Below are positions 19,901 to 54,775 of a DNA stretch of 64,000 bases, piece by piece. This stretch comes from a virus. Each line of letters starts with the position of its first letter. Within the stretch, counting starts at the first letter, position 1. The stretch covers positions 2,767 to 66,766 of the IMG/VR virus record IMGVR_UViG_3300044695_005266. The stretch is one strand, 5' to 3'. Under the pieces are notes generated by a model. That model saw only the letters and a list, made by a program, of their open reading frames with translations. It was not told the origin of the DNA and did no database searches. The position numbers and the translations under genes are program-made.

Positions 19901-22900
19901 GCGTGATGGAGAAGAAACTTCGCCCGCTCAAGGAGGACTCGAAAGGCAAGTTCAACTTGGCGGACGGCACACGCCGCGTGCAGGCGGCGATGCTCGCTGG
20001 CATGGCGCGGAAGGCGGGACTCAAGTATGGCGAACTCGCGCAGGTCATGGAGAGCGAAAACGGCAAGCGTGCGATTTCCACCATCCTAGCGAGGGCGGGA
20101 CGACTCGCGGGCCTCGACTCCGACCTTTCACTCGCAAGCCCAATCATGGCGGCACTGGCGGCATTCCAGCGCGGAATAGCGGCGGTGAAGGGAGAGCAAT
20201 ACAAGAGTCTGGAGGAATGGTTCAGCAACAGAAAGATGGAGTTGATCAAGGACGACCTGAGTGCAGAGGGAGAAGCCTTGCTCTCGTTGTTCTCGCGCTC
20301 GCAGAGATCCGCCAAGGAACTTGCCACCGTTTTAGACGCATATTTAGTGCTGGCAAAAGAAGAACAAAATCAGCGTGACTTGGATAAAGAAACGGGCGAT
20401 ATGTTCGGAAATGAACGCGCCAAAGTCAGTCCCTTCACCCTCCTCTCAAAAATCACGAACACCGCGAGTGCCGAGAACGGCGAACTCTTTACTGAGGGAG
20501 GCAGCAGCAAGCCTGAAAATCCCGCTCCCGCCGCCGAGGACAAAGTAGAACCTCCCGCCGAGGAAAAGCCTGAACCTCCGAAAGAGGAAGAAAAGCAGAC
20601 CCCGCTCAAGGAGCAGCCAGAGGACACAGACGGATCGATTCCTGAAGAACCAGATTTCGGCGCGGACACCGAGGAAGGAATGATCGGCAGACGGCCAATC
20701 AAAGTCAGCGACAAACCGACACCCGAATACAAAGGGCAAACAGTAGGCACACGCGAGGCGCAAAAATCACTCGAAGCAATCGGCGCAGCGGTAGGCAAAA
20801 CGGTTCCGTTCCAAGTCGGCAGAGTAAAAGGGAAACAGAGCGGCACGTTCAAGGAGCATCCCGAAGTGGTCAGGATGCGGACAGCACTCAGCCTCGACGT
20901 GGCCGCGCATGAGACAGGGCATCTTCTCGCCAAGGTTCTCTACAAAACCCTGCGAATCGGTTCACAGAAAGGCGTTGTGCCAAACAACGTATTGCGCGAA
21001 CTAAAAAAACTCGGCGAAGATTTATACGGCGGAGCGAAGCCAATCGGCAGCTACACCAGCGAGGGATTCGCTGAGTTCTGGAGACTTTACTTCACCACGG
21101 ACAACGCTGAAGCAGAGGCACCCAACGCATACAAGTATTTTACGGAAACCGTTCTCCCGCTGTTCGCAGAAGTGGAGAGCGCAGTGAAGCAGGCCCGCGA
21201 AGCATTCACACAATACCGCGCACAAGGAGTCAGGAATAAAGCATCGGCGGACGTGGTTGATCCGAATAGCTCGGCAAACAAGCTGAAGCGTTTCAAGCAG
21301 TCCATGTCTCGGCCTGAACTGATCAGGAAGTGGGTGGACGAACTCGAACCGATACGCCAGATGGTAGCGGAGGCGGAAGGAAAGCTAGGCGACTCACTCC
21401 CGATTGACAGCAACCCATACGCAATGGCGAGCGCACTGCGCGGCACGGCAAAACTTGTGGCAGCGTATATGAATGAGAAGGCGATGCGCGACTTCGCTGG
21501 AAACATTACAGGGCAGGGACTCTCGGAAATCATGGCAATCGTGAAGGGCAACGAGTCCGACTTCATGCTGTTCCTTTGGGCGCACCACGCGCTTGAAAGA
21601 TGGGATGCGAACAAGAACCCCGGCCTCACGCGGGCGGAGGCACAGTTCCTCGTTGATGAACTCGGCAAAGATCCGAACTTCAACATCGCAGCGGACAAAT
21701 ACTGGAACTGGAACCGTGGCTTGATGAACTACGTGCGGGAGGCAAGCCCAAGCATCGCCCCGCTGATCGACAGCATCACGTCACGCTGGAAGAAATACAT
21801 CCCGCTCTCCCGCTGGTTTGAGCCGGGCGAAGTTCGCACCGCCATCCAAAGCGCACAAACAGGCGCAAGCACGGCACTCAAGAGCATCACCCGTTTCGGC
21901 TCAGGGCGCGAGATACTGGAGCCAATGCCAGTGATTCTGAACAACGCCGAGAAATGGATCGAACTCGCTCACAAGCGGGTGATTCTGGATGCTGTGATGA
22001 ATCTCAGGAAGATTGAAGGACTCGGCTTTCAAATCGAGGAAGTGCCGCGTGGCCTGAAAATGAACTCGCTCACCGTGGGCGACATTCGCGATCAGTTGGA
22101 GAAGATGGGCATGGATACCTCCACCGTGGAGGACGACGACATTCTCAACTACTTCACGCCGATGTCGAAGCCGAAGGGGAAAGACCCGATCATTTCCCAC
22201 TCCGTAGAAGTGATGAATCCCGAAACAGGGAAGAAGGAACTCAAGACAAAGTGGTTCTTCGTGGAGCCTCGCATCTTCGACGCACTGGAGGGCATTGACC
22301 TTTACAGGCTGCCAAAAGCACTGAACCTATTGCTCGGTTTCCCTGCCAGAATGTTCCGACTTGGAACCACGGGACTCCGCGCATCGTTCAGCTTCTTCAC
22401 CAACCCCGCCCGCGACTTGCCGACATTGCTCATGCAGTCCGACAGCAAGGCTAGTGCGCTCACACTGTTCGGATCATGGGTTCGCAGTTTCGGCGCACTA
22501 TGGAACCCGAACAGACTTCGCGGACAGAATCATCCGCTCATAGATATGTTCGACAGGTTGGGCCTGCAAGTAGGCCAGCCGCTCGGACAGGACATCGATC
22601 CCTACAAGCAGCACCAATCCAAGAGTCTTTCAGGGCGCATGGTTCACAGGGCGCACAACGCAATCGAGACGCTTCAAAAACTGTTCTCCGTCAGCGAATC
22701 CGCCCCGCGCATTGCCGAAATGGAGCAGATTGCGAAAGACGTAGGTTGGGATTGGAAAGCAGGCGCACCGATAACCACCAAGCAGATGTATGCGATCATG
22801 CTCGCGGCCAAGAGATCCACGGTGGACTTCTCGGCGGCAGGCTCCTACGCGAAGGCTGTCAATCAGGCCATCCCGTTCTTCAACGCGACCATTCAGGGTG

Positions 22901-37568: not shown

Positions 37569-38873
37569 ATGCCACTAGGAATACCAGAAGGAAACCCGAT
37601 GGCGATTGCCGCAATGGGCGAACGCTACGGGGATCGTCTTGTCGGCCAGCTTGCACAGGCTGGCGGCATGATCGAGAACGGATTGAAGGCTGTAACCACG
37701 ATGAAGGAGTTACAGAGTCTCGGTCAGAACCTTTCGCAGATTTCGCCGGAATCACCGGACTACCAGCAACAGTTGATGCAGTTGGGTGCAGCGCATCCGT
37801 TCGCCATGCAAGACCCGCGAGGTCAGGCTTTGGTCAGCATGGGCAACCAGCAACATCTACAATGGAAGAATCAGCAATTTGCAATGCGGCAGGCTGATCG
37901 ACAGGAGGAGCGGGCGGATCGGCGCGACGAGGCATCATATACAAGACAGGGAAAACGAGATGCTTCATTGCACGACTTCCGTATGGCGGAAATTAATCAG
38001 CGATGGGGCGGTGGGGGCGAAGGGGGTATTGATTTTAGCGGAGGATTGCCAACAAAAACTACGCCCGTATCCGGTTTTTCTGATGATACTTTAGGGGGAG
38101 CTTCGGCGGCGAATATGGGCGATCCGTCTATGGTTCAACCAGAGCCTTCTCTTTTTATTGATGCAACAGCAGCGGAACCTACTAGCCCGCCAGCCGGGTT
38201 TTCGGCCAGAGGGCAAGCGATGGGCGATCCGAACAACAAGGAGCTTCAAGATGCATACAGGGAGCGCGGAAGGATTATTCAACAAGCGTATGGAGGCAGA
38301 CCGCTTTCAAGAAAGGAGGTTGCCCAACTTGTAGTTGCGCCAGTAAATAAGGAGCTTGCGGCAGGGACTTCGGCCGAGGGCAAAGTAGTAGCGCAAGATA
38401 AGAGCCTTGCCGCTAGAAAACAATCCGAAACTGATAAGCGGGAGTATGATAAATGGAAGCTGCAAACGCTACAAGAAGCCAGCGTGAAAGCAGCGGCAAC
38501 AATGCAAGAGGCCAAAAAGGAATCGGCACGCATTCTTGCTGGCGGCAAGTTCACCGATTTCCAGAAGGGGGAGATGAGACCATTGCAGAAAGAAATGGAG
38601 GACTCGATTGAAATTGCTAATTTATTACTTTTGAAGTTACGGGCAGCCGAAGCTAGCGGTGAAGAATTGGCCGAAACTCAGTCGCAGGCGACGCAAGCCA
38701 GAATTGCGGCGAATGAGGCCACAGAGCGTTACAAGAATTGGATGAAAGAGAATGGCGGCGGCAGCGCGGCAAGCTCGGATAAGGTTCGTGTCGTCGGCCC
38801 TGATGGAAAGAAATACAATTTACCAAAGTCTCAACTTGAAGATGCTATCCGGCAGGGATACAAGCAGGAATGA
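37569..38873 (+). CDS. Internal virion (ejection) protein
   Basis: Helical and Q-rich; C-terminal VRVVGPDGKKY..P...GY motif. Confidence 0.65.
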   Translation: MPLGIPEGNPMAIAAMGERYGDRLVGQLAQAGGMIENGLKAVTTMKELQSLGQNLSQISPESPDYQQQLMQLGAAHPFAMQDPRGQALVSMGNQQHLQWKNQQFAMRQADRQEERADRRDEASYTRQGKRDASLHDFRMAEINQRWGGGGEGGIDFSGGLPTKTTPVSGFSDDTLGGASAANMGDPSMVQPEPSLFIDATAAEPTSPPAGFSARGQAMGDPNNKELQDAYRERGRIIQQAYGGRPLSRKEVAQLVVAPVNKELAAGTSAEGKVVAQDKSLAARKQSETDKREYDKWKLQTLQEASVKAAATMQEAKKESARILAGGKFTDFQKGEMRPLQKEMEDSIEIANLLLLKLRAAEASGEELAETQSQATQARIAANEATERYKNWMKENGGGSAASSDKVRVVGPDGKKYNLPKSQLEDAIRQGYKQE

Positions 38874-41800
38874 CTTTAAACCTAGAGCCTGTTCTTGATT
38901 TAGAACCGATTGACGATAAAGGTTCTAAGCTGGATTTGGAGCCTATTGACGAATCCCCGAAAGAATCCATAACCCCGTCACAGGATTACGGTGGTGCGGG
39001 GACAGCACCAGCATCCGATCCATATCCCGCACCCCCTGCATGGATGGCTACGCCCGATATTCCGGAAGCACCGCCAGAAGTCGCGCAGCAGGCACGGTAT
39101 GCGCAGGAAATGGCAAGGCATGGAATAGACTCAATTACGCTCGCGTCAAAGTGGGATTGGAGCGATCAATATACACCGGAGCAGAAGTTCTTAGAACAGA
39201 ACAGGCGCAGGGCCGTAGCCTCGATTGAACGGGATGATCTCAAGGAGAAGCTGAAAACCCCTGACCGATTACCGCAGGAACCCTTCAACCCTACATCTGC
39301 GCTCTCACCTGAGTATCGCGCTACGGCACAAACAGAGGGGCGCGTGCGGGAGCTAGATGCGCAGATTTCGGCGTTGTCCGAATCCGCGAAAAGCCCTGCC
39401 GTCTTGGACTACGAGAAACGCGCACGCGACAAGGAGAAGGAGCAGATGGAGCTAGAGCAAATGCGGGAGCGCATTAAAAAAGAGGTCTATGGTGAAGGCC
39501 CGAATCCGGTATTTAGCACAGTTCTCAGGACTGGCGGTGCGCTTGCGGGACAACTTGGTGGTGCGTTCGCGTTTTTCACGGGCAACAAAGAAGATGGGTC
39601 TATCGCGTATAACTTGGCTAATGTAGAAAAGAGCATCCGAGATGCGACTGGCGTTGACGAAAGCACGGCGGGACGGGTTGCCGGGGCAATCGGTGACACG
39701 TTAGGGCTGATTGTCGGCCCGACAGGAAAGAGCGGACTAGCGAGAACGGCTTTCGGATTATCAACGGCAGCAAGGGCGGCGGCTCATGCTTACGGCAACG
39801 CGCTTTCATCTGGCGAAACCAAGGGGCAAGCGCTGAAATCGGCATTGATGACGGCGGTGGAAATGGCGGCGTTTCTTGGGCTGGCTCACAAGGCAAAGGC
39901 CGGGATCACAAGTATCACAGGGTCATTGAAACCCACAGCCGCTCCCGCTGCTTTGGCAGCAGAGGAAATGCTGAAATCGGGTGTAGCGAATATGGCTGCA
40001 AGCGGTGCATTGCGATTCGCGCATGGAGAAGGATTCGCGCCTACACTGGAATCAGCGGTGACGGATTGGACTTTTGCCGCGCATGGCGGGATGAACGCAT
40101 TCGGTCAACGTCGGTCAAGCATTGCGGCTGTTGCAAAGGCTGACGCTATGCGCGGAACTCTGTTTCCAGAGGGGGCTACCGAAGTAAAAACCAGAGATTC
40201 CGTTGTTCATACCGCGACAACCAGCGAATTGTTTTCAGCTTTAGTCAATAGACAAAGCGAACTTGCAAACAAGCCTACTCGCACAAAAGCAGAGGAAAAA
40301 GAACTAAAAGAGCTTGATGCGGTTGATGGAGATCACTTGGCGATCAAGAAGATACTTGATGCCAAAGCGAAAGAGGCAGGGATACAGCGTGTCAGAGATA
40401 CAGACAGGACGGAGTTTGAGCAGGCGATAAAGGAGAAAATTACAGAACTGGAATCCCGCGAACTTGACGGACAGGAGGAAAGGCTATTGGAGACGCTGAA
40501 ATCACAGCCAATAGAAGCCATTGCTACGATGTATGGCAAGAGGTTGTCGGAACCCGTATCCAGCCAAGCAGGGATGCAGCAGCAGCCGATCAACGTGAAT
40601 GTTTCACCTGCACCCGCTGCACCAACTGCTGCAAAACCAGCAGAAGCGATACGGGTTGATCTTGGTGATTCTGCTATTGCTGAGATAAATCCAGCGACAG
40701 CGGAAATAAGGTATTCATCCACAGCCGATCCGAATGCGTTTGGAAGATTGGAAACCAGCGAGGGTCTAAATGGTGAGATTATTGTAGAGAATCATCATTT
40801 GGATGAAGGATTGCGCGGAAAAGGATTCGGAGGAAAAGCCATACAGAAATTACAGGAAATAACAGGGAGAACAATTATTTCCGATGAGCGTCCATCGGCT
40901 AACGCAAGGGCGATGTGGGACAGGCTTGGAGCAAAGCGGGAGCGCGTTAAATTGACGGAGGACGAAAGCCAGATGCGCTATGTTCTTCGTCCCGAAAAAC
41001 CAGCATCACCCGCACCCGAAAACCTTCCGCCAAAAGTTGAAACCGCAATCCGCGAAGGCACAGCAACCCCGGATCAGCTTCAAAGCGCAACCGAGCAACC
41101 CTTGCTATTCGACACACCAAAGCAGAAGCGGGATGCGTTTGTGCTGCGCGATGCTTTGCGGCAGAAGATTGACGAGGTTGAAGCTGGCGAATACAGCGAG
41201 AACCAGGACAGGAATCACGCGAGACTCACGGAAATGTTGGGTAAAGTGGAAAAGCAGATCGCGGATAATGCGAAGCCAGCGGATAAACCGGATGTGGTGG
41301 AGGCTGTGCCGGAATCGGCTGAACCCGCTGCCGAGGTTAGGGGTTCTGTATTTGAAACTACCGTAAGAACGCATGAGGGAGAGGCAAAAAAGATGTTTGC
41401 CGTTCAGCGCGGCGAAAATCGAGGCATGGGAGATAGGGTTTTCAATACACGGGAGCAGGCAGAAGCGTTCTCCAAAGAGCAGGAAGCGGACATAAAGCGT
41501 GCTGCCGACAAGAAGATAGCTATCGAAAAAGAAGCAGCCGATAAAGCGAGGGCAGAGGCTGAAAGACCTAGAACCGATATAGAGATTTACACCGACGGTA
41601 TGCCGCCAATGCAGCGCGGAAAGATTTCCGCAACGCTGTCTGAATACGGAGGAAAGAGGGCTGGCGGAAAGACGTATGACGGGACAAGGGCGCAAGTAAC
41701 CAAGCAGTTATTAGAGGCTGGCTATGTCCCGAAATCGGTTGAGGTTTCTGCCGTTAAGGAGTTGTCCGGCAATCGCATGAACAAGATGGATCAGCGCGAG

Positions 41801-44800
41801 CAAGATGCGTATGAAGCCAAAAGAAAAAAGGCAGGAACGAAAACCGAGTATAGGCTTGAAAAGGGCGATGGAGATAGCGTTTTTACTGTCACAAAAGCAG
41901 AGCATGATTATGCGGTTCATCTAAAGAGCAAGGAACCAACTGCTGAAAAACCAGCATCACCTGCAAAAGCGGAACCCGCACCCGTTGCGAAGGATGTGCC
42001 AGCCAAGGCGGAAGAACAAAAGTTTAGATACTACGCCGAAGTAAAGAAGTCTCAAATGCCGCTCATAGAAGATGCGGAAACTGGCATAAAAAAGAGATAC
42101 GAAGATGCAGTTGGAAAGAAACTCACGGGCGACGAGGTTTTCAATTTAGCGACTCGCATTGCCGATTCAATCGAATCCACTGGAAAGAAATCTCCGCACA
42201 TTCAAGACCTACTGGACTCGGCTACGGATCAGCAAATCAAACGGGCATACGAATCTCTGAATAAGCAAGCAGAACCCGCACCCGTGCTACGCAAGGGGGA
42301 GAATCAGGGTGACTTGCTCAAGGGAAGATCGGATGACGCTTTCAACCTAGTAGGCGAAAAGCAGGCTGAACCTAAACCAGCGGAACCCGCAGGCCCGACA
42401 AAGGAGAAAATGGCAGATGCCGCGATGCGGGCTTACGGTAGCTACGAGAGGGCTATCGAATCGCTCAAGGTGCAGATGGAGGGCAAAATATCGGCAGAAT
42501 CGAAGCAGCGGGTCAAGATAACCATCAACGAACTAGAGCGCAGACGAGATAACGAATTACGCGCCGAAATGGAGAAGGAGCAGATGGACGCTGTTCGTGA
42601 ACAGGAAGATAGTGGCGGCAACGAACTACTGTCCGTTATCAGGAAGCTAGGCGGGTTGCCGTTGATCGGGAAAGAGACGGTGCTAGGTGGCGAGTTTAAG
42701 CGTGTTTTCGAGATGCCGCGAGGCAAGCATCTGCGCATGAAGTGGACGAGCAAGATGCAAGGCAAGTCGCTGGATGCCATTCGCCAGGAGTTGGAGGGGC
42801 ATGGGTTCTACTTTGAAACGCCAGCGGAGATGCTAGAAGCAATCGGTAGGGCGATGCGCGGTGAACGGATTGTCGGTAGCGAGAAGCCGATGGAGGGTGG
42901 ACAGGAGGATTTCTTCAATCGTCAATCCATATCCGACAAAGCTCCGGCATCCCCGATGCACGTTAATGCGGTGCAACGTATCGCCACTACGCTGATAGCC
43001 AGGTTCAAGGGTGCTGCCAAGACTACGGTTGTAGCTGATGGAGAGCAGTTGCCGGAAGCCGTGAAAGCCAAAGCGCGGGAGCAGGGCATTGCTTTGAATC
43101 GCATTGGCGGGGCTGTGCATGACGGCAAGGTGTATCTGAACGCCGCTGGACTTGAATCGCCTAAACGTGCTGCCGAGATATTCTTTCACGAACAAGCGGG
43201 TCATATGGGCGTTGACGGGCTGCTGGATGGCATATCGGCTAAGAGTTCATCGCGGCTGATGGAGGTATTAAAGCGCGAGTTTCCGGCTGAATCGAAGTAT
43301 GTCGCTGAACGCTACGTCGAGGGCGAGCATCTGGCGGAAACGCTTGCTCGTATCATGGAGAAGTTCGGGCCGGAATCCGATGCAACCCCGCAAGCGCAAT
43401 CGCGCTATCGCAGAGTTGTGGATTTCATTCGCACGATTCTCGCAAAATCCGGCATCAAGAATTGGAGCAAAAACGACATCGAAGCCCTGTTGCGCCGTGG
43501 CATTGAAAAGGTTCGCAGGGGTGAAGGGAAGGCGGATAAGGGGGATACGAAGCTGAGCATTGAAGATGAAGAATATACACTTTCGGGCGACCTAAACGAT
43601 CCATACACAAAACGAGAAATTGTTGCAGAAAAAAAGCGAATCGCAGAAAAGTCAGACAAGGAACTACTTGAAAGCATACAAGGGCAAGCCGCTCTATTTA
43701 AGCTAAGGAGTCAGGACTTAAAGGCAGGAAGCGAAGTTGTATTTCCTGCGTCAACTTCCGTTACGCCATTTACGAGAGCAAGGATGGGACTGCATTACGA
43801 AGAAGCCATGAGGAGGGGGCTGGATGTGCCGCAATCCAGTGGATTAAACAAATACATCGGATTCAAAGAGCAGGGCATGGACAGAATCGGAGGTTCGCGG
43901 GACAACATCCGTTTCGCTATTAACGATGAACCCGGTGGTCGTTCTGCATGGGAAGCCAAGCGCGATGCCTTCCGTAAGAACAAGGAAAAGACAAAAGAGG
44001 ATGACTTGTTTGCCGCTGCGCCAAAAGCGGAACCGATCCTCATGTCGAGCAAGAACGCCTTTCAAGCGGAAGAAGCGCGGAAGCGCGGCGAATCACCGAT
44101 TGAATCGGACTTCTACCGCTCAAATCCAGAGGTAGCCGAAGCAGCGCGTGTAGCGATGGACAAGAACCCTGATGCCGTGGATACGGTGATTAGGCATCTG
44201 CTAGAGGAAGGGCGGGACACGCGCAAAATCTCCATACAGGAAGAAGCGATGTTGGTTCATCGCGGGTTCGATCTGAAACGTCAGGTTGCGGGGGCTGAAC
44301 GGATGATTGAAAACAAAAACAGCACACCAGCGCAAAAGGCAATGGCCGAGGACAGTATTATAGATGCACAGACGAAGATGATTGAGCTTGCAACTGCCAT
44401 GCACGCATCAGGCGAGGTATGGGGCGCGTTCGGTTCATTCCGTCAGCGGATATTCCAAGATGACTTTTCTCCGGCTTCGATGGTGCGCAAGCTGGAAAAG
44501 GCGAAGAACGATAAGTTGACCGATGCAGAAATTGCAGAGGTCGAGATTGAGGCGAAGAACATTGAGATGATTCGCGTTGATTTTGAAAAGGCGGAAAGGG
44601 CTGCCGTGGACATTCAGCGGGACGATGCCGCACAGGATGCGTTCGACAAAGCCTCTAGGTATCATCCGAAGGTGCTGGAATATGCAGAGGGTATCGTTGC
44701 CAAGTGGGAAGCGGAAGCCGTGAAAGCGCGGAAAGATTTACGCGAGGCAATGGGTATGGTGTCTGCCAACCCGCTATCGCTCAAGGTTGCCGCTGCCTTG

Positions 44801-47773
44801 TTCAAGATTGCGCGGGCTAAGATTGCTCGCGGATCGCTGAACGCCGCTGAGTTCACAGCGGAAATGGTTGCTGAGTTCGGTGATTCGGTGAAAACAGCAA
44901 TACAACCTGCATGGGATCAAGCGATGAAGGCTATCGGCAAGCTGGATGCGAATAAGGAGCGCAAGAAAACACCGAAGCAGAAGAAAGCAGAGAAAACCGC
45001 AATGGACGAAGCGGAATCCATCGAGGACGGTATCAAGGCTGTTGCGAAAGACCCGAAATCGCTGAATGACGGCTTTGACTCATACGTGAAGAAGCTGGCG
45101 AACGAGTATGTTCGGATGGGCGAAACCACTGTTGCCGGGGTAATCGCCAAGCTGCACAAGTTTTTCGATCCAATGCTGCCGGGCTTGACCGACAATGCTT
45201 TGAAGGAGGCATGGACAAAGTTCGGCAAAGGTAAAGAGGCTACAACCGATCCAACGAAGATGCTGCAAAGCCAGCTGCGCTACGAAGCGTTGTTGGAGCG
45301 CAAGATTTCCGATTTAGAGAAGCTGAAAAGCCCACCGCGCACCGCCAATGAGCGCGTGAAACAGACGGAACGAGCAGGGCGATTGCTGGCAGAGATCGCG
45401 GAACTCAAGAAGAAGCTACCGCCTGATGAGGGCAATGCCGCTGGACGGCTGCAATCCTCACTGGATGCGATGGAGACTCGCGTTCGTAACCGCATCGCGG
45501 AACTGCGCTACGAGATCGCTAAGGGCGAACGCACGCTGAAACAAAAGGGTGTGCCGCCGACAAGCCCAAATCTGGAAGCCTTACGCGCTGAACTCGCGGA
45601 AGTGGATGCGGCTCATCTTGCGGTGTTTGGCAAGCGTCAGATGACCGAGGAACAGAGGCAAAAAGCTGCAATCCGCTTGGCTGAACATTTGGAGAAAAAG
45701 GCTATGGCGGAACTCGCCAACGCCAAGAAGGGTATCTTCGCGCAACCTGCTGCAAAAGGAGTCAGCCGATTCGTTGAGGTTGAGGCGATACGCAAAAGGG
45801 CGGAAGCTGCGCGGGCTGAGACGAAGGCGTTGAAGGGAATGGATGCGGCGATACAGGAGGCGAAGAAAACTGCTGCCTTGGAGTCTGAAATCAAGAAGTT
45901 GGAATCCACGCTTGCCGAAGGAAAGTTTGCGCCGAAGGAAAAGGAATCCGATCCTACCGTGGAGACGGAAGCCGTCACAAACCTGCGAGCCAAACGGGAT
46001 GCACTCGCTGCTGAACTGGCAGAGAAGCGCAAGGCTGCGCGTCCTGTGCCAGATGCGGAGTTGCGGGAGTTAAATCGGCTGGAAAGCGAACTAGCATCGC
46101 TGATGGTCGGCAGGGCTAAACCGCAGAAGAAGATGACAGTGGACACGGAGCAACAGGCGTTCGCACGGGAGCAGCTTGCAGCTAAACGCGCTGAACTGGC
46201 AGAGATTCGGGCTAACGATGATATGCTCAAGATCGCCAACAGGAAAGCGGCAATCCTTCGCCAAATGGCAGACCTGGCGGATCGCACGGCTCGCGGTGAC
46301 TTTGAACCGCGCAAGAAAAAGCCCGCACTCGATATATCCAAAGACCCGGATACGATGAGACTAGCGGCAGAGCTAACAAAGAAAAAAGCTGATTTCGCAA
46401 GGCGCGTAGAGAAATACAGACTAGCGAATCTGACATCCGTGCAGCGCGGGCTTATCAATCTCGGTAAGACTTGGGATGCTACCCGCAACCTTTTCCTCTC
46501 ATTCGATTTCAGCGCATTCCTACAAACGGCAGCGGCGGCGGCAGCGCACCCGTTGGAAGCCGGGAAAGCACTTGGTAAAGGAGTCAAGGCGTTTGCCTTC
46601 ACTCTGTTCTCAGATCGTTACGCGCATGAGTTACAAGAGCGGGCGCGTCAGGAGCCGTTATACAAGAACGGAACATTCAAGAAGATGGGGCTGGAAATCA
46701 GCGAGACGATGGGCGAAGCGCGGGAAGAAAATATGGTGAACGTGTTGGAGCGATTAGCTGACGTTCAGACGCGCTGGAAGGATATGCCGGAAGCCGTGAA
46801 GAAGCTGATCGGGATGCGCGGTGTTCGGAATATCGTTAGCGGGCCAATGGATATGTTGAAGTATGCTGGTTGGAGAAGCGGCATCGGGCGCGGACTCAAG
46901 GCGAGCAATGTAGCGTTCGGTGCTATCGCTGGTCACATGAGGCTGGTTGTAGCAAAGTCGCTTCTGCGCCGTTGGTTTCCGGACGGAAACGCGACAGACG
47001 CACAGCTTAAACTGCTTGGGAAATTGGCGAATACCTTCTCAGGAAAAGGCGGAATCAAGAACGGTGGTGCGCTGAATCGGATTTTCTTTGCGCCTAATTA
47101 TTACCTCTCAATTATGAAGGGGCTTTCTGCATGGGATATGAGGGAAGCGGCTATCGCTGGCGAAGGAAAGGTGGTGGCGGCTATGGCGGAAGAATACGTT
47201 CGCGCAATCGCTACTATCGTTACCGTTGGCAGCATCGCGTATCTACTCGGAGACAGGAATGAGCAGGACATCAATCCGCTGGATAGCGATTTCGGCAAGT
47301 TCGTCGGCAAGCACGGCACTCGGACAGACCTATCAATGGGGCGCGGGGCTTACGTCACGCAGGCTGCGAGATACCTTACTGGCTATACGAAAGAGGATGG
47401 AAAATATGTCAAGCGCGACAGGAATACAGGGCTTGCGCTGTTCCTCGCTGGAAGGTTTAGCCGTGAAATCAAAATGGCTACGGCTATCCTGGACGGGAAA
47501 TCCTACGACAAAAAGCTGGAAGGGCCGTTGGATTACTTAAAAGAGTCGTCGCTTCCGCTCGCTTGGCGTGATCTCGATAAGGTGCTGGAAAAAGAGGGCA
47601 TCACCCGTGGCGCATTTCTGCAAATGCTCAATCTTCTCGGCATCACTTCTCGCATCAAAGACGAGAAAAAGAGCAGCGGATCAATCAACAACATGGACAG
47701 CAAAATAAAACGAGAGATTACAGGTGAAATCGGCCTTGGCAAAGGCTCAATACTTCGTCAAAGGGTTGATTGA
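38870..47773 (+). CDS. Second giant polyvalent ejection protein (2967 aa) with GNAT and zincin-like domains
   Basis: LDLEPID N-terminal repeats; LRGKGFGGK..SANARAMWDRLG (GNAT, ~40800); FFHEQAGH..EHLAE (~43180); long coiled coils. Confidence 0.8.
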   Translation: MTLNLEPVLDLEPIDDKGSKLDLEPIDESPKESITPSQDYGGAGTAPASDPYPAPPAWMATPDIPEAPPEVAQQARYAQEMARHGIDSITLASKWDWSDQYTPEQKFLEQNRRRAVASIERDDLKEKLKTPDRLPQEPFNPTSALSPEYRATAQTEGRVRELDAQISALSESAKSPAVLDYEKRARDKEKEQMELEQMRERIKKEVYGEGPNPVFSTVLRTGGALAGQLGGAFAFFTGNKEDGSIAYNLANVEKSIRDATGVDESTAGRVAGAIGDTLGLIVGPTGKSGLARTAFGLSTAARAAAHAYGNALSSGETKGQALKSALMTAVEMAAFLGLAHKAKAGITSITGSLKPTAAPAALAAEEMLKSGVANMAASGALRFAHGEGFAPTLESAVTDWTFAAHGGMNAFGQRRSSIAAVAKADAMRGTLFPEGATEVKTRDSVVHTATTSELFSALVNRQSELANKPTRTKAEEKELKELDAVDGDHLAIKKILDAKAKEAGIQRVRDTDRTEFEQAIKEKITELESRELDGQEERLLETLKSQPIEAIATMYGKRLSEPVSSQAGMQQQPINVNVSPAPAAPTAAKPAEAIRVDLGDSAIAEINPATAEIRYSSTADPNAFGRLETSEGLNGEIIVENHHLDEGLRGKGFGGKAIQKLQEITGRTIISDERPSANARAMWDRLGAKRERVKLTEDESQMRYVLRPEKPASPAPENLPPKVETAIREGTATPDQLQSATEQPLLFDTPKQKRDAFVLRDALRQKIDEVEAGEYSENQDRNHARLTEMLGKVEKQIADNAKPADKPDVVEAVPESAEPAAEVRGSVFETTVRTHEGEAKKMFAVQRGENRGMGDRVFNTREQAEAFSKEQEADIKRAADKKIAIEKEAADKARAEAERPRTDIEIYTDGMPPMQRGKISATLSEYGGKRAGGKTYDGTRAQVTKQLLEAGYVPKSVEVSAVKELSGNRMNKMDQREQDAYEAKRKKAGTKTEYRLEKGDGDSVFTVTKAEHDYAVHLKSKEPTAEKPASPAKAEPAPVAKDVPAKAEEQKFRYYAEVKKSQMPLIEDAETGIKKRYEDAVGKKLTGDEVFNLATRIADSIESTGKKSPHIQDLLDSATDQQIKRAYESLNKQAEPAPVLRKGENQGDLLKGRSDDAFNLVGEKQAEPKPAEPAGPTKEKMADAAMRAYGSYERAIESLKVQMEGKISAESKQRVKITINELERRRDNELRAEMEKEQMDAVREQEDSGGNELLSVIRKLGGLPLIGKETVLGGEFKRVFEMPRGKHLRMKWTSKMQGKSLDAIRQELEGHGFYFETPAEMLEAIGRAMRGERIVGSEKPMEGGQEDFFNRQSISDKAPASPMHVNAVQRIATTLIARFKGAAKTTVVADGEQLPEAVKAKAREQGIALNRIGGAVHDGKVYLNAAGLESPKRAAEIFFHEQAGHMGVDGLLDGISAKSSSRLMEVLKREFPAESKYVAERYVEGEHLAETLARIMEKFGPESDATPQAQSRYRRVVDFIRTILAKSGIKNWSKNDIEALLRRGIEKVRRGEGKADKGDTKLSIEDEEYTLSGDLNDPYTKREIVAEKKRIAEKSDKELLESIQGQAALFKLRSQDLKAGSEVVFPASTSVTPFTRARMGLHYEEAMRRGLDVPQSSGLNKYIGFKEQGMDRIGGSRDNIRFAINDEPGGRSAWEAKRDAFRKNKEKTKEDDLFAAAPKAEPILMSSKNAFQAEEARKRGESPIESDFYRSNPEVAEAARVAMDKNPDAVDTVIRHLLEEGRDTRKISIQEEAMLVHRGFDLKRQVAGAERMIENKNSTPAQKAMAEDSIIDAQTKMIELATAMHASGEVWGAFGSFRQRIFQDDFSPASMVRKLEKAKNDKLTDAEIAEVEIEAKNIEMIRVDFEKAERAAVDIQRDDAAQDAFDKASRYHPKVLEYAEGIVAKWEAEAVKARKDLREAMGMVSANPLSLKVAAALFKIARAKIARGSLNAAEFTAEMVAEFGDSVKTAIQPAWDQAMKAIGKLDANKERKKTPKQKKAEKTAMDEAESIEDGIKAVAKDPKSLNDGFDSYVKKLANEYVRMGETTVAGVIAKLHKFFDPMLPGLTDNALKEAWTKFGKGKEATTDPTKMLQSQLRYEALLERKISDLEKLKSPPRTANERVKQTERAGRLLAEIAELKKKLPPDEGNAAGRLQSSLDAMETRVRNRIAELRYEIAKGERTLKQKGVPPTSPNLEALRAELAEVDAAHLAVFGKRQMTEEQRQKAAIRLAEHLEKKAMAELANAKKGIFAQPAAKGVSRFVEVEAIRKRAEAARAETKALKGMDAAIQEAKKTAALESEIKKLESTLAEGKFAPKEKESDPTVETEAVTNLRAKRDALAAELAEKRKAARPVPDAELRELNRLESELASLMVGRAKPQKKMTVDTEQQAFAREQLAAKRAELAEIRANDDMLKIANRKAAILRQMADLADRTARGDFEPRKKKPALDISKDPDTMRLAAELTKKKADFARRVEKYRLANLTSVQRGLINLGKTWDATRNLFLSFDFSAFLQTAAAAAAHPLEAGKALGKGVKAFAFTLFSDRYAHELQERARQEPLYKNGTFKKMGLEISETMGEAREENMVNVLERLADVQTRWKDMPEAVKKLIGMRGVRNIVSGPMDMLKYAGWRSGIGRGLKASNVAFGAIAGHMRLVVAKSLLRRWFPDGNATDAQLKLLGKLANTFSGKGGIKNGGALNRIFFAPNYYLSIMKGLSAWDMREAAIAGEGKVVAAMAEEYVRAIATIVTVGSIAYLLGDRNEQDINPLDSDFGKFVGKHGTRTDLSMGRGAYVTQAARYLTGYTKEDGKYVKRDRNTGLALFLAGRFSREIKMATAILDGKSYDKKLEGPLDYLKESSLPLAWRDLDKVLEKEGITRGAFLQMLNLLGITSRIKDEKKSSGSINNMDSKIKREITGEIGLGKGSILRQRVD

Positions 47774-51202: not shown

Positions 51203-51513
51203 ACTCTCAGAACGAACTCGACTTTTCCGGCCCCGCGCTGCGCGACAGTGGCATATCCAAGGTTCTCGCCAATAACGAGGAATGGAAGCAACGCTTTTTC
51301 ACGGCTGCTGCGATGATCGTTCAAGCCCGTGGAACAGTTACCAGCGATCTAGTGGTTGAGGCGATAGGCGAGCCGGATGGTAGCCCTAACGTCATTGGTG
51401 CGGCTATGCGGTCATTCGCTGTCAGCAACAACCTGCAAGTGGTTCACTACATGAAAAGCCAGAAGCCCAGGCGTCATGCTGCGATTGTCGCGGTATGGGG
51501 GAGAGTGATATGA
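51199..51513 (+). CDS. Hypothetical phage protein
   Basis: Start MNSQNELDF coupled to the upstream stop. Confidence 0.65.
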   Translation: MNSQNELDFSGPALRDSGISKVLANNEEWKQRFFTAAAMIVQARGTVTSDLVVEAIGEPDGSPNVIGAAMRSFAVSNNLQVVHYMKSQKPRRHAAIVAVWGRVI

Positions 51514-52811
51514 GTGAACAGACTTACCTTCCGGCAATTCACCGGATGCTCCCTCAATCCGAAGAAGCCGAAAAAGGGGTGCTATCGTGCCTCGTTCTAA
51601 GCCCAAACGAGGTAGGTGCGATATGCAGCAAGATGGGCATCACTCACAAGCACTTCCTGATTCCCGCTCACTCCCTGTTGTTTCGAGCGGCAACCGCGCT
51701 ATGGAAAGCAGGGAAGCCCCTGGACTTCATCACCCTGACGCAGTTCCTCCGCGACAAGGGCAAGCTGGATCAAGCGGGTGGGGCTGCTGCCGTTTCCTCC
51801 CTGTTCACGTTCCTGCCAACTGCCGCCAACGCTGAATACTATCTTGGCTTACTCACGGAAAAGGCGATTGCTCGCGCTTTGATTCATATCGGGACAAAGT
51901 ATGCGAGCAAGGCGTATGACGAGCAGGGCGGGGTCAATGCGCTCGCGGCTGAACTGCATAGGGAAGTCTGTGAACTACTAGGGCAGGGGCGGATCAAGGA
52001 TCAGCCTATCAAGGAAGTCTTGAAGGAGATTTTGCAGGAGATAGCCAGCGGGAAAGAGGATGAAAGCAATCTGCCGACCTACATCCCGGCACTCGATCAG
52101 AACTTGAAGCTCTATCGTTCTGACTTTGTAGCTATCAAGGGCGGCACGGGTAGCGGCAAATCCTCTCTAGGGTCACAGATTATCGTGGAGACGGCTATCA
52201 GGGGCAGCAACAACTTGTTTTTCCCGCTAGAAATGTCAGCGAAGCAATGCCTTAAACGGGCTATCGCGGGCATATCCGGTCACAACATGGAGGCTGCGCG
52301 GTTCCAGATGAAGGTTGCGCTCAGGACAGGCGATATGTCAGGGACACAGCAGATGCAACAGGATGTCGCCGGAGCCGTGCAAAAGCTGATGGCGAGTAAC
52401 CTACGGATGCCGAAGTCGTGCAGGACGCTCAACTCGATTATCGGGGAGTGCAGAAGCGCGAATGCGGAGAAGCAGCTAGATTATGTCCTCATAGACTACA
52501 TACAATTATTGCACGTTGAAGGCAATTTCGGGACTCGCCAACTCTCCATCGGTCACGCGACACAAACGCTCAAGCAGCTGGCCGACGAACTCAAGTGCAT
52601 CATCATCACCCCGTCACAGGTGAATAAGGACGGGGTATCGCGGGAAGCTGCGGACATCGAGAACGACGCCAACTCTGTAATCGCCATTGACTACAACAAG
52701 GAGGACGGGACGCGCAAGGTGCGCGTGGAGAAGCAGCGCGAGGGTGCATCGGGTATCGAGGTTCCGCTGGAATGGAATGGGCCTTTAACCAAGTTTGAAC
52801 CTATAAAATAA
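51510..52811 (+). CDS. dnaB: Replicative DNA helicase, DnaB-like
   Basis: LPQSEEAEKGVL N-domain, GGTGSGKS, LEMS, IDYIQL, SQVN, IENDA, KQREG. Confidence 0.92.
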   Translation: MSEQTYLPAIHRMLPQSEEAEKGVLSCLVLSPNEVGAICSKMGITHKHFLIPAHSLLFRAATALWKAGKPLDFITLTQFLRDKGKLDQAGGAAAVSSLFTFLPTAANAEYYLGLLTEKAIARALIHIGTKYASKAYDEQGGVNALAAELHREVCELLGQGRIKDQPIKEVLKEILQEIASGKEDESNLPTYIPALDQNLKLYRSDFVAIKGGTGSGKSSLGSQIIVETAIRGSNNLFFPLEMSAKQCLKRAIAGISGHNMEAARFQMKVALRTGDMSGTQQMQQDVAGAVQKLMASNLRMPKSCRTLNSIIGECRSANAEKQLDYVLIDYIQLLHVEGNFGTRQLSIGHATQTLKQLADELKCIIITPSQVNKDGVSREAADIENDANSVIAIDYNKEDGTRKVRVEKQREGASGIEVPLEWNGPLTKFEPIK

Positions 52812-53080: not shown

Positions 53081-53268
53081 AAATAACCGCCATGTCCGAC
53101 GCATACGACAACTACGACGACCCTGATCCCGATAACCTGCGCCATGAGTTCGGGAAGCCGAAGCGCAAGGGATTCGATTGCGCCGATGGATTTTGCGGGG
53201 CTGGCGATTGCCGGAAGTGCAATGGCGCGTATGCAGAGAAACGGGAGGAAGATGAAAACGCACCTTGA
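53077..53268 (+). CDS. Small Cys-cluster protein
   Basis: CADGFCGAGDCRKC. Confidence 0.55.
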   Translation: MKITAMSDAYDNYDDPDPDNLRHEFGKPKRKGFDCADGFCGAGDCRKCNGAYAEKREEDENAP

Positions 53269-54202
53269 CCTTTTCAGCGGAATCGGAGGATTTGCGATAG
53301 CCGCGCAAGCCTGCGGATATACAACAATCGGCTTTTGCGAAAAAGAGAAATATGCACAACAAATACTCAAAGAACGGTTCGGAGCGGTTCTGGTTGACAG
53401 CACAAGCGCGGGACTACCGAAGCGTCACGGGGCGGGAGCACTTACAGCGGGAGAACGCCATGCAAAACTTGAATGTAGCAGCAGTATATTCCCAACGCTC
53501 CACCCCGACATCTTCGACCTCGACGGAGCCGACTACGCCGGGGTTGACCTGCTCACAGGGGGATTTCCTTGCCAGCCTTTCAGTGTCGCCGGGAAGCGAC
53601 GAGGCGCGGAAGATGACCGTGCGCTCTGGCCGGAAATGCTCAGAGTTATTAACGAAGCAAGACCCCGTTGGCTCATTGGTGAAAACGTTGCTGGAATCGT
53701 CACGATGGAACTCGACAATATCCTTTCTTCACTGGAAGCAATCGGTTACTCCTGCTGGCCGCTTGTTATTCCGGCTTGCGCCGTCGATGCCAGACACAGA
53801 AGGGACAGAGTTTGGATTGTGGCCCACGCCGACCGTTCAGGACAGCGACAAGGCGACGAAGAAGATGCGGAGCGAGCATCAAAATAACCTGACAGCGGTG
53901 GTTTTCAACAGTCCCATGTTTCCGACGCCAACTGCGAGGGATCACAAGGGCAGCTACACCCCGGAGGCGATGACACGGAAGGACGGCAAAAGCCGGATGG
54001 ATGGGCTTCCGCAGGCAGCGGCATATCATGCGGATGGAAACCCGAATCACAGTGGTTCGCTGAATCCGGCATGGGTCGAGTGGCTCATGGGATACCCCAT
54101 CGGTCACACCGTTTGCGCGGATTGGGAAACGCCATCGTCCCGCAAGTCGCGGAAGAAATCATCCGAGCAATCGCCACAATAGATGAACCCGCACACGATT
54201 AA
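53252..54202 (+). CDS. C5 cytosine methyltransferase alpha frame, interrupted by one in-frame TAA at 53885-53887
   Basis: DLFSGIGG, GGFPCQPFS, ENV, RDRVWIV before the stop; the same frame continues to GRVAHGIP..RLRGLGNAIVPQVA (motif X) and TAA at 54200-54202. Confidence 0.8.
53352..54182 (+). CDS. C5 methyltransferase beta polypeptide, nested in the +1 frame
   Basis: 276-aa open frame with WPTP/FPTP repeats and LNPAWVEWLMGYPIGHT (motif IX-like). Confidence 0.75.
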   Translation: MHNKYSKNGSERFWLTAQARDYRSVTGREHLQRENAMQNLNVAAVYSQRSTPTSSTSTEPTTPGLTCSQGDFLASLSVSPGSDEARKMTVRSGRKCSELLTKQDPVGSLVKTLLESSRWNSTISFLHWKQSVTPAGRLLFRLAPSMPDTEGTEFGLWPTPTVQDSDKATKKMRSEHQNNLTAVVFNSPMFPTPTARDHKGSYTPEAMTRKDGKSRMDGLPQAAAYHADGNPNHSGSLNPAWVEWLMGYPIGHTVCADWETPSSRKSRKKSSEQSPQ

Positions 54203-54560
54203 ACGCTTATTCCCGAATGCCTCTGCATCCCTGATACAAGCCAACCTACAAGACTATGGACAAGCTCACGTTGATAATCCCCGGACGACTCCCGTTGTGG
54301 AATCAAATACTTGCGATGCACCACTGGAAACGAAAGAAGTTCAAGGACGCGCAGATGGACGATTTCTTGTCCGCGTTATCAGTTGCCGCAAGCGACTTGC
54401 AGATGAGGACGGGTTGTGCGAAAAATATGTTTTGGATTGCTGCCGATACGCTGGCCTCATTCCAGACGACTCGCCGGAACTCTGCAAAATTGAAACGAGC
54501 CAAAGGAAAGCCGCGAAAGGCGAAGCGGAGCATACGATCATCGAAATAACACGACCATGA
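54183..54560 (+). CDS. RusA-like Holliday junction resolvase, catalytic half
   Basis: RKRLADEDGLCEKYVLDCCRYAGLIPDDS...TIIEI. Confidence 0.7.
   Translation: MNPHTIKRLFPNASASLIQANLQDYGQAHVDNPRTTPVVESNTCDAPLETKEVQGRADGRFLVRVISCRKRLADEDGLCEKYVLDCCRYAGLIPDDSPELCKIETSQRKAAKGEAEHTIIEITRP
54256..54549 (+). CDS. Nested +1-frame ORF resembling the RusA N-terminal strand/helix
   Basis: MDKLTLIIPGRLPLWNQILAMHHWKRKKFK, with its own ATG. Confidence 0.55.
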   Translation: MDKLTLIIPGRLPLWNQILAMHHWKRKKFKDAQMDDFLSALSVAASDLQMRTGCAKNMFWIAADTLASFQTTRRNSAKLKRAKGKPRKAKRSIRSSK

Positions 54561-54775
54561 ACACCGACGAACTATTCACCCTGCCCCCGTCACAACCTTC
54601 ACCCCTGCAATCCGCTCGCAGGGCATTGGCTGATGCTGAACGGGATTACGCCGCCGAGCGCGAACGCTGGAAAGAAAACTCGATTGAGCTAGAGCCGTAT
54701 CGTCGTGCCGTGAACCGATACTCGGAACTCGTTAAAGCCGAAGAACTTAAAGAACTTAATAACCGCGCTGGGTAA
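54557..54775 (+). CDS. Hypothetical helical protein
   Basis: 72-aa coupled ORF. Confidence 0.55.
   Translation: MNTDELFTLPPSQPSPLQSARRALADAERDYAAERERWKENSIELEPYRRAVNRYSELVKAEELKELNNRAG

Follow-up and report, generated by a model that had tools for sequence, protein, structure and literature searches.

Among described enzymes, the nearest in layout to the locus reported here is M.EcoHK31I (E. coli HK31; YGGCCR), a C5 DNA methyltransferase in which, according to the sections of PMC2836561 and PMC3404938 that deal with it, the beta chain is encoded inside alpha in a different frame, alpha supplying motifs I-VIII as well as X, and beta supplying motif IX. Both chains are described as required for activity, and the N-terminal 42-70 residues of beta as driving its association with alpha (PMC2836561, in the same sections). 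M.AquI is also a natural two-subunit enzyme, divided in the variable region, and its fold tolerates a break between motif VIII and motifs IX/X; it differs, as presented in the relevant part of PMC3404938, in being made as two consecutive polypeptides (I-VIII, then IX and X together) that are not nested, with motif X staying with motif IX. In the engineered systems treated in that part of the same paper, separately made N- and C-terminal fragments of M.SssI, M.HhaI and M.BspRI rebuild active enzyme in the cell, although the best M.SssI pairs had ~4% of full-length activity and [1-304]+[304-386], a pair with its cut close to the C-terminal end, had none; no three-fragment enzyme appears in that part (PMC3404938). 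Our subject is a nested methyltransferase locus at positions 53252..54202 (plus strand) of a 64,000-nucleotide stretch of viral DNA, hereafter the window, which corresponds to positions 2,767 to 66,766 of IMG/VR virus record IMGVR_UViG_3300044695_005266. Its alpha frame is interrupted by a TAA between motifs VIII and X, and we consider the locus to be probably a recent nonsense mutant whose enzyme is predicted to be disabled or weakened; we see in it an incipient pseudogene of recent origin rather than an enzyme designed in three pieces. The features on which the argument turns are the following, in window coordinates:

53252..53887, plus strand: alpha-N, the part of the C5 DNA methyltransferase with motifs I-VIII, 211 residues, with matches to PF00145, TIGR00675 and M.HhaI.
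53352..54182, plus strand: beta, 276 residues, nested wholly within the span of alpha, with a match to phrog_1008.
53885..53887, plus strand: premature TAA within the alpha linker; the T doubles as the last base of the Asn codon AAT of beta.
53888..54202, plus strand: orphaned remainder of alpha, an unconserved linker followed by motif X (RLRGLGNAIVPQVA), in an open frame to the TAA at 54200-54202.
54071..54202, plus strand: candidate alpha-C open reading frame (ORF), 43 residues (MGRVAHGIP...), the sole way in which motif X could be made separately.

The alpha-frame ORF extends from 53144 to 53887; the start used here is the ATG at 53252, immediately preceded by GGGAGGAAG, and the terminator is the TAA at 53885-53887. 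The alpha-N product matched PF00145 (4.2e-38) and TIGR00675 (2.3e-30; 106.4 bits against a cut-off of 100.65), and it aligned with M.HhaI (5e-18) over motif I and motifs IV-VIII. Motif I (FSGIGG), motif IV (PCQPFS), motif VI (ENV) and motif VIII (RRDRVW) follow one another in order in this one chain, the series by which we recognized a C5 methyltransferase, and its N-terminus, MKTHLDLFSGIGG, is common to P0009 and P0010. Past the TAA, the alpha frame runs through a stretch rich in G, S, E and Q and into MGRVAHGIPHRSHRLRGLGNAIVPQVAEEIIRAIA with no further stop before 54200-54202, and this tail matched the C-terminal end of phrog_363 (positions 256-317 of 327, 4.3e-10). Because the TAA intervenes, motif X (GNAxxP) does not lie in the same polypeptide as motifs I-VIII in the window, and the alpha frame, with this one TAA, is not stop-free from motif IV to motif X.

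Beta matched phrog_1008 with an E-value of 1.4e-34, its residues 36-256 aligning with profile positions 9-282 of 329, and this significant match across most of the profile places it in PHROG 1008. There were 2652 database proteins homologous to beta at E<=1e-10, and with these matches the +1 ORF goes well beyond a chance occurrence; no Pfam domain was found in the 120 of them that were listed, and the window beta itself had no Pfam or NCBIfam match. From its N-terminus onwards it has a WPTP-like module, then a core that is conserved, then WPTP/FPTP modules and, near the C-terminus, a motif IX-like EWLMGYP stretch (SLNPAWVEWLMGYPIGHT). The core is strongly conserved, with the consensus ...DFLASLSVSPGS.EAR.MTVRSG.KC...SRWNSTI.FLTWK...GRLLFRL.PSMPDT..TEFGLWPTP, and the number of WPTP modules that follow it varies; these modules are presumably the target-recognition part. 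The start of beta is most likely the ATG at 53352, the N-terminal MHNKY, which a WPTP-like module follows, aligning with MHNKS or MPNKS starts in 11 of the 22 other rows shown. An AlphaFold2 model of beta had a mean predicted local distance difference test score (pLDDT) of 56.9 and was confident only at residues ~80-150 and 239-246, and a Foldseek search of this model against the PDB returned no match at E<=0.001. As a separate observation, the extra N-terminal WPTP-like module of beta reads RFWLTAQARDYRSVTG... (53352-53520), and the same bases read in the alpha frame as an insertion of ~35 residues between motifs II/III and IV (AVLVDSTSAGLPKRHG...), an alpha-frame shadow of the beta module; relatives in the clade have other modules and correspondingly different alpha insertions.

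The original prediction, made from the sequence alone, had placed motifs I-VIII in one frame up to the TAA at 53885-53887, an open frame beyond it to motif X with an in-frame ATG at 54071, and a motif IX-like segment in a nested +1 ORF of 276 residues whose AAT-AAC codons create the TAA. Each of these points agrees with the matches above: the PF00145, TIGR00675 and M.HhaI alignments cover the first, the phrog_363 match to the tail covers the second, the ATG does open a 43-residue ORF at 54071..54202, and the alpha stop takes its T-A-A from the beta codons AAT AAC (53883-53888). The analogy that it drew with M.EcoHK31I and its overlapping alpha and beta frames was also apt. Compared by published description, the window has the same arrangement, with beta inside alpha, motifs I-VIII and X in alpha, and motif IX in beta. 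It differs in that the window beta also overlaps alpha motifs IV-VIII and the window alpha is broken by a stop. A further difference concerns target recognition: the sections of PMC2836561 and PMC3404938 devoted to M.EcoHK31I put the target recognition domain in alpha, whereas here the conserved core and the WPTP modules are in beta and the alpha stretch between motifs VIII and X is unconserved.

Annotated relatives of the nested pair exist in cultured phages. Paenibacillus phage Bloom has two annotated nested coding sequences, BLOOM_56 (351 residues) and, at +1, BLOOM_57 (234 residues), and its beta is homologous to that of the window (tblastn 3e-28); Escherichia phage K1ind2 has ORF29, a 'C-specific methylase' of 309 residues, and ORF28, a 'Mte8-like protein' of 265 residues at +1 (3e-7), both E-values having been obtained with a 212-residue beta query. 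These two differ from the window in that their alphas are unbroken (351 and 309 residues) and in that their identity to the window beta is only 30-38%. A tblastn search of beta against phage records matched 111-113 genomes. Many of these records have, under the beta match, an annotated methyltransferase or hypothetical protein with no second nested gene, and beta is therefore often missed in annotation; for instance, Lacticaseibacillus phage R9.1 and Phage C72C1 have alpha alone annotated, with the +1 ORF present. We searched open-access full text for a paper describing the nested family and found none there, M.EcoHK31I being treated as a curiosity; two cytosine methyltransferase genes are listed in one Paenibacillus phage paper, which does not comment on them in the part concerned.

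To place the window among its relatives we scanned viral, metagenome and genome contigs, each of which gave several hundred relatives, and kept the best 80 per scan. Each locus was anchored at motif IV, at EWLMGYP and at motif X, which reduced 328 collected loci to 279 anchored and 237 distinct ones. In 234 of the 237, beta lies at +1 relative to alpha and motif X is again read in the frame of alpha. Within these 234 loci, no stop interrupts alpha from motif IV to motif X in 228 and none interrupts beta in 232, whereas the third frame has 6-29 stops per locus (mean 13.4). The window has the layout that defines the family: its beta lies at +1 and is open from motif IV to EWLMGYP (0 beta stops), and motif X returns to the alpha frame 47 nucleotides after EWLMGYP, a distance shared by 150 of the 158 loci tallied. 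Selection on both frames is seen in the codon positions: pairwise identity at alpha third positions, which are beta second positions, is 0.57 in the overlapped motif IV block, while motif I has 0.34 and motif X has 0.41, with first and second positions similar, and the raised third-position identity in the overlap therefore points to both frames being under selection. Nesting is thus a trait of the family and not a peculiarity of the window, and the family keeps both frames open over about 600-830 bases per locus. Both products are conserved across phages from Bacillota, Proteobacteria and Bacteroidota, and across metagenome-assembled genomes that bear the labels of many other phyla; the beta relatives among these genomes span too many phyla to point to one host. 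Across it, the alpha stretch between motifs VIII and X is unconserved (the consensus is mostly x) and motif X is nearly invariant. Alpha-N has at least 7960 homologous proteins, and among its best 120 matches motif X lies in the same chain in all 119 non-self homologues, the window product being the sole exception.

A few relatives depart from this layout in other ways. P0221 is a database protein that opens with alpha motif I (HLDLFSGIGGF) and continues as beta, and is either a natural frame-fused form or the result of an error in one base; several other relatives have a beta ORF that stays open upstream, through motif I. In a viral contig whose best segment is 70% identical to the window beta (L033:2512-2990), the core of beta continues without a frame change into motif X, and EWLMGYP lies in the third frame; this locus is a derivative with a frameshifting deletion and resembles an M.AquI-like split. 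We also looked for a single-chain fusion of alpha and beta among longer proteins; 18 long beta-like proteins were found, 0 of which had PF00145, which is weak evidence against the existence of an in-frame fusion.

Since the source record is a metagenome assembly, an error at the TAA had to be considered, and the original prediction had named a sequencing error as an outcome that would overturn it. The codon is also spanned by contigs of two more public runs, which come from other samples and other studies: X4 record 6 (53801-54700) and X7 record 25 (53624-54032). Both were independently assembled, both carry the identical TAA, and they show 0 differences from the window over 900 and 409 aligned bases, with no variant letter at 53885-53887 (runs X5 and X6 do not span these positions). 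Contigs can hide rare variants, and a minor C allele at 53885 is possible. The TAA is real, and we regard a sequencing or assembly error as having next to no likelihood.

If the codon is real, it might still be bypassed, by readthrough, a suppressor tRNA or a frame hop, with full-length alpha still made. The alpha frame is indeed open on either side of this single stop, and an A-run (TCAAAATAAC) precedes it. However, a -1 slip on the A-run leads into the third frame, which has a stop two codons on, and a +1 slip leads into beta and not into alpha. ARAGORN, applied to the window and to the 2.8 kb of the record that lie outside it, found no tRNA gene. TAA terminates the gene for the DnaB-type helicase described below and 15 of the 33 long plus-strand ORFs (this one included), and is therefore an ordinary stop in this phage; relatives have a sense codon at the site, which argues that there is no conserved recoding signal. 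UAA is generally the least leaky of the stop codons, which also counts against bypass. The readthrough that the original prediction had offered as one of its options thus has nothing in its favour beyond the open frame and the A-run, and we consider bypass of any kind very improbable.

The origin of the stop was approached through two unbroken natural alphas, P0006 and P0008 (338 and 339 residues), which are identical to the window at 104 of 108 residues over window alpha residues 193-300. The window stop aligns with a Gln of both, within ...ERASKQPDSGG.... The rest of alpha-N shows 70-87% identity to its best homologues; the near-identity of the linker beside these lower values therefore suggests a very recent shared ancestry of the linker with P0006 and P0008, and the stop appears to be young. 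The simplest history would be a single transition, CAA>TAA, which in beta changes AAC to AAT, both Asn, and so would be silent in beta. Such a change would be visible to selection on alpha only. We infer the direction and the exact codon of the change from these alignments. Searches for DNA of close relatives gave little: with P0008 as the query, viral contigs yielded 3 loci, all of them distant, a scan with the beta of L100 (a clade member discussed below) found nothing above 45% identity, and the best matches in the metagenome and genome scans had 59% and 48% identity.

A second change in the same gene was seen in the comparison with P0006 and P0008, namely a 28-residue gap directly after VWIVAH in the window alpha. 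Its position is:

53819..53836, plus strand: point where 28 codons are deleted by comparison with P0006 and P0008; one stretch of bases here yields VAHADR in the alpha frame and WPTPTV in the beta frame.

The corresponding region of P0006 (VAHA...ENVADAD) consists of two similar stretches, and the window copy is collapsed between them. Probably one WPTP module was lost between these direct repeats, in frame for both genes.

Whether such stops are tolerated can be judged from the other loci. The window linker comprises 80 codons, in which 44 single-base changes would make a stop, 19 of them silent in beta. Alpha stops were found in 6 of the 234 loci: the window, L031, L084, L100, L250 and L159. 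The first four have a TAA in the linker, an open beta and a preserved motif X, their stops (window 53885, L031:1099, L084:643 and L100:2154) lying on beta codon pairs AAT AAC, AAT AAG, CCT AAG and AAT AAT, respectively; the pattern NNT AAN under all four is consistent with beta-silent changes at a beta third codon position. L250, from an Acidobacteria-labelled metagenome-assembled genome contig, has a TGA inside motif X (KLK*LGNAIVPQ; 2253-2255) with beta open, and is a clear broken copy or a sequencing error; a TGA within motif X suggests that decaying copies occur in the family. L159 has an alpha TGA plus a stop in beta. The stops of the six loci lie at differing places, and each locus has a stop-free nearest neighbour. 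So few and so scattered stops, despite the large silent target, give the picture expected if alpha continuity matters and broken copies are short-lived tips, and alpha continuity thus appears to be selected. For the check proposed in the original prediction, whether homologues tolerate stops in the variable region of alpha while keeping motif X, the counts are 4 of the 234 loci with such a stop, the window included, and 228 stop-free ones, and the stops that exist are scattered.

Three patterns that we considered in this material were dropped. The first four stops found were all TAA (4/4), but L250 and L159 have TGA. The window and L100 had seemed to indicate that all known members of the window's clade are broken, but there are many unbroken clade members among the alpha homologues. 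Enrichment of stops among loci with an ATG at the position of ATG 54071 was not clear (2 of 17 as against 3 of 179), and the window itself had been chosen for its stop.

The remaining structural question is whether the break has yielded a working three-piece enzyme, consisting of alpha-N (I-VIII), beta (the recognition part and IX) and a 43-residue alpha-C peptide (X) started at ATG 54071, with the break in the linker costing little. This ATG is the first ATG, GTG or TTG in the alpha frame past the stop, lies 184 nucleotides downstream of the TAA, and sits just before the conserved part of alpha-C. It is made by the beta codons GCA TGG, whose Trp is that of the conserved WVEWLMGYP. In 196 loci the codon at this site is GTG in 153, ATG in 17, TTG in 16 and CTG in 6; a start-type codon (ATG, GTG or TTG) is therefore present in 186, and the family has one before the C-terminal segment of alpha because the Trp codon of beta is invariant. 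Of the 17 loci with ATG, 15 have an unbroken alpha, and Met precedes GRVA in 44 of the listed alpha homologues that show that pattern. An ATG forced by beta and common in unbroken alphas does not indicate adaptation to the stop. No Shine-Dalgarno (SD)-like word was found upstream of ATG 54071, and the RNA fold around it was unremarkable (z = -0.86). The ATG also lies well past the stop, within a frame crossed by ribosomes that are translating beta.

Several observations weigh against a simple nonsense mutant, and most of them would suit three chains. Apart from the TAA, alpha-N, beta and motif X are without stop or frameshift, as a tolerated split would look. Five of the 234 loci (the window, L031, L084, L100 and L250) have one alpha stop with beta open, and in four of these, all but L250, the linker holds the stop and motif X is intact. 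L100, of the same clade, has its own TAA 15 nucleotides before an ATG that opens MGRVANGIP... (L100:2154-2174), with beta and motif X intact; re-initiation after termination is plausible at this spacing, and L100 is the best candidate for it. SD use appears to be low in this phage, SD-like words standing before 11 of 48 ORF starts (crudely called) where the background is 0.26, and with no enrichment there the missing word before 54071 argues little. C5 methyltransferases tolerate splitting, both in M.AquI and in the weakly active M.SssI fragments covered in the part of PMC3404938 cited above, and internal Met codons acted as starts in E. coli for the M.EcoHK31I beta (PMC2836561, in its account of that chain). 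In an AlphaFold2 model of P0008, linker residues 198-323 had pLDDT under 50, a weak hint of an unstructured linker since the model was poor overall (mean 45). The TAA genotype was found in several lake samples and was therefore not quickly purged. Moreover, both the ancestral codon, CAA or CAG, and the claim that beta was left unchanged come from the protein alignments with P0006 and P0008 only.

Against three chains stands above all the distribution of stops. If splitting were harmless, the 19 beta-silent routes to a stop would predict that stops are common, yet 228 of the 234 loci and all 119 of the closest listed homologues are unbroken; nor was a split state conserved among diverged relatives, the stop positions differing among those that have one. 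With the stop apparently young, nothing shows that the split state is maintained. The ATG is a by-product of the beta GCA-TGG codons, as described, and the M.SssI pair cut near its C-terminus, the engineered precedent given in the relevant section of PMC3404938, was inactive. A working three-piece enzyme therefore seems unlikely to us, although its chance is not negligible. We attach a similarly low chance to the more general idea that the break is tolerated because, with a start-type codon before the conserved C-terminal segment of alpha in 186 of the 196 loci, any beta-silent stop in an unstructured linker could leave a motif X peptide of 40-odd residues that starts and docks. If this were true, the window, L031, L084 and L100 would be natural three-chain C5 methyltransferases, and the first made of three polypeptides from two overlapping frames.

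Finally, alpha-N and beta might keep a useful role without motif X, such as sequence-specific DNA binding or weak methylation, in which case function would have changed and not been lost. Both ORFs are open, and the persistence of the genotype in several lake samples would suit such a role, but motif X is nearly invariant in the family and the data give no sign of a new role; the preservation of motif X downstream can be put down to the youth of the stop, which also speaks against this reading. We regard it as improbable, less so than bypass of the stop.

Among the options that the original prediction had left side by side, the recent nonsense mutant is thus the one favoured here, through the Gln of P0006 and P0008 and the unbroken frames of the 119 listed homologues and 228 loci, and its tripartite enzyme with a separately initiated motif X is not supported, given an ATG forced by beta, unbroken relatives and no SD-like word. 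On the reading we prefer, the locus encodes a phage C5 DNA methyltransferase that is an orphan and is built from two nested chains. The alpha frame holds the catalytic motifs I-VIII, an unconserved linker and motif X, and beta, at +1 inside alpha, holds the core, the WPTP modules and the helix with EWLMGYP; if M.EcoHK31I is a guide, both chains would have to associate to methylate DNA. In this phage lineage a single C>T would have converted a linker Gln codon, most simply CAA, to TAA, beta keeping its Asn (AAC>AAT). Alpha now ends past motif VIII, which would leave motif X without an evolved translation start, and a loss of activity is what we would predict.

The source record is a 66,766-base IMG/VR virus record that CheckV rates as complete, and the runs containing the window sequence are lake-water metagenomes. 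Upstream of the methyltransferase, and separated from it by two small ORFs, lies one further identified feature:

51495..52811, plus strand: DnaB-type replicative helicase (PF03796, 1e-29; PF00772, 1.6e-21).

This helicase marks the phage replication module. A replicative helicase also adjoins the nested methyltransferase in the distant phages Bloom (Paenibacillus; upstream) and K1ind2 (Escherichia; downstream). Two giant ORFs were seen elsewhere on the plus strand. The first, at 7954-23934, encodes 5326 residues and takes up a quarter of the 66.8-kb phage record; a search of its first 4900 residues found a ddrB-like ParB domain (3.3e-16) and a Strawberry-notch helicase C-terminal domain (8e-12), and it looks like a giant 'polyvalent' phage protein. 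The second, at 38870-47773, encodes 2967 residues and had no Pfam match at 1e-5.

The stop codon itself would be an ordinary event, in which an accessory gene of a phage has newly acquired a nonsense mutation. The wider family is the more interesting subject, being large and little described, with both frames kept open and with a beta for which there is no Pfam or NCBIfam model. It is a natural data set for the evolution of long same-strand overlapping genes, in which linkers in each frame exist solely to carry the domain of the other frame, and in which a mutation may be silent in one gene and lethal in the other.

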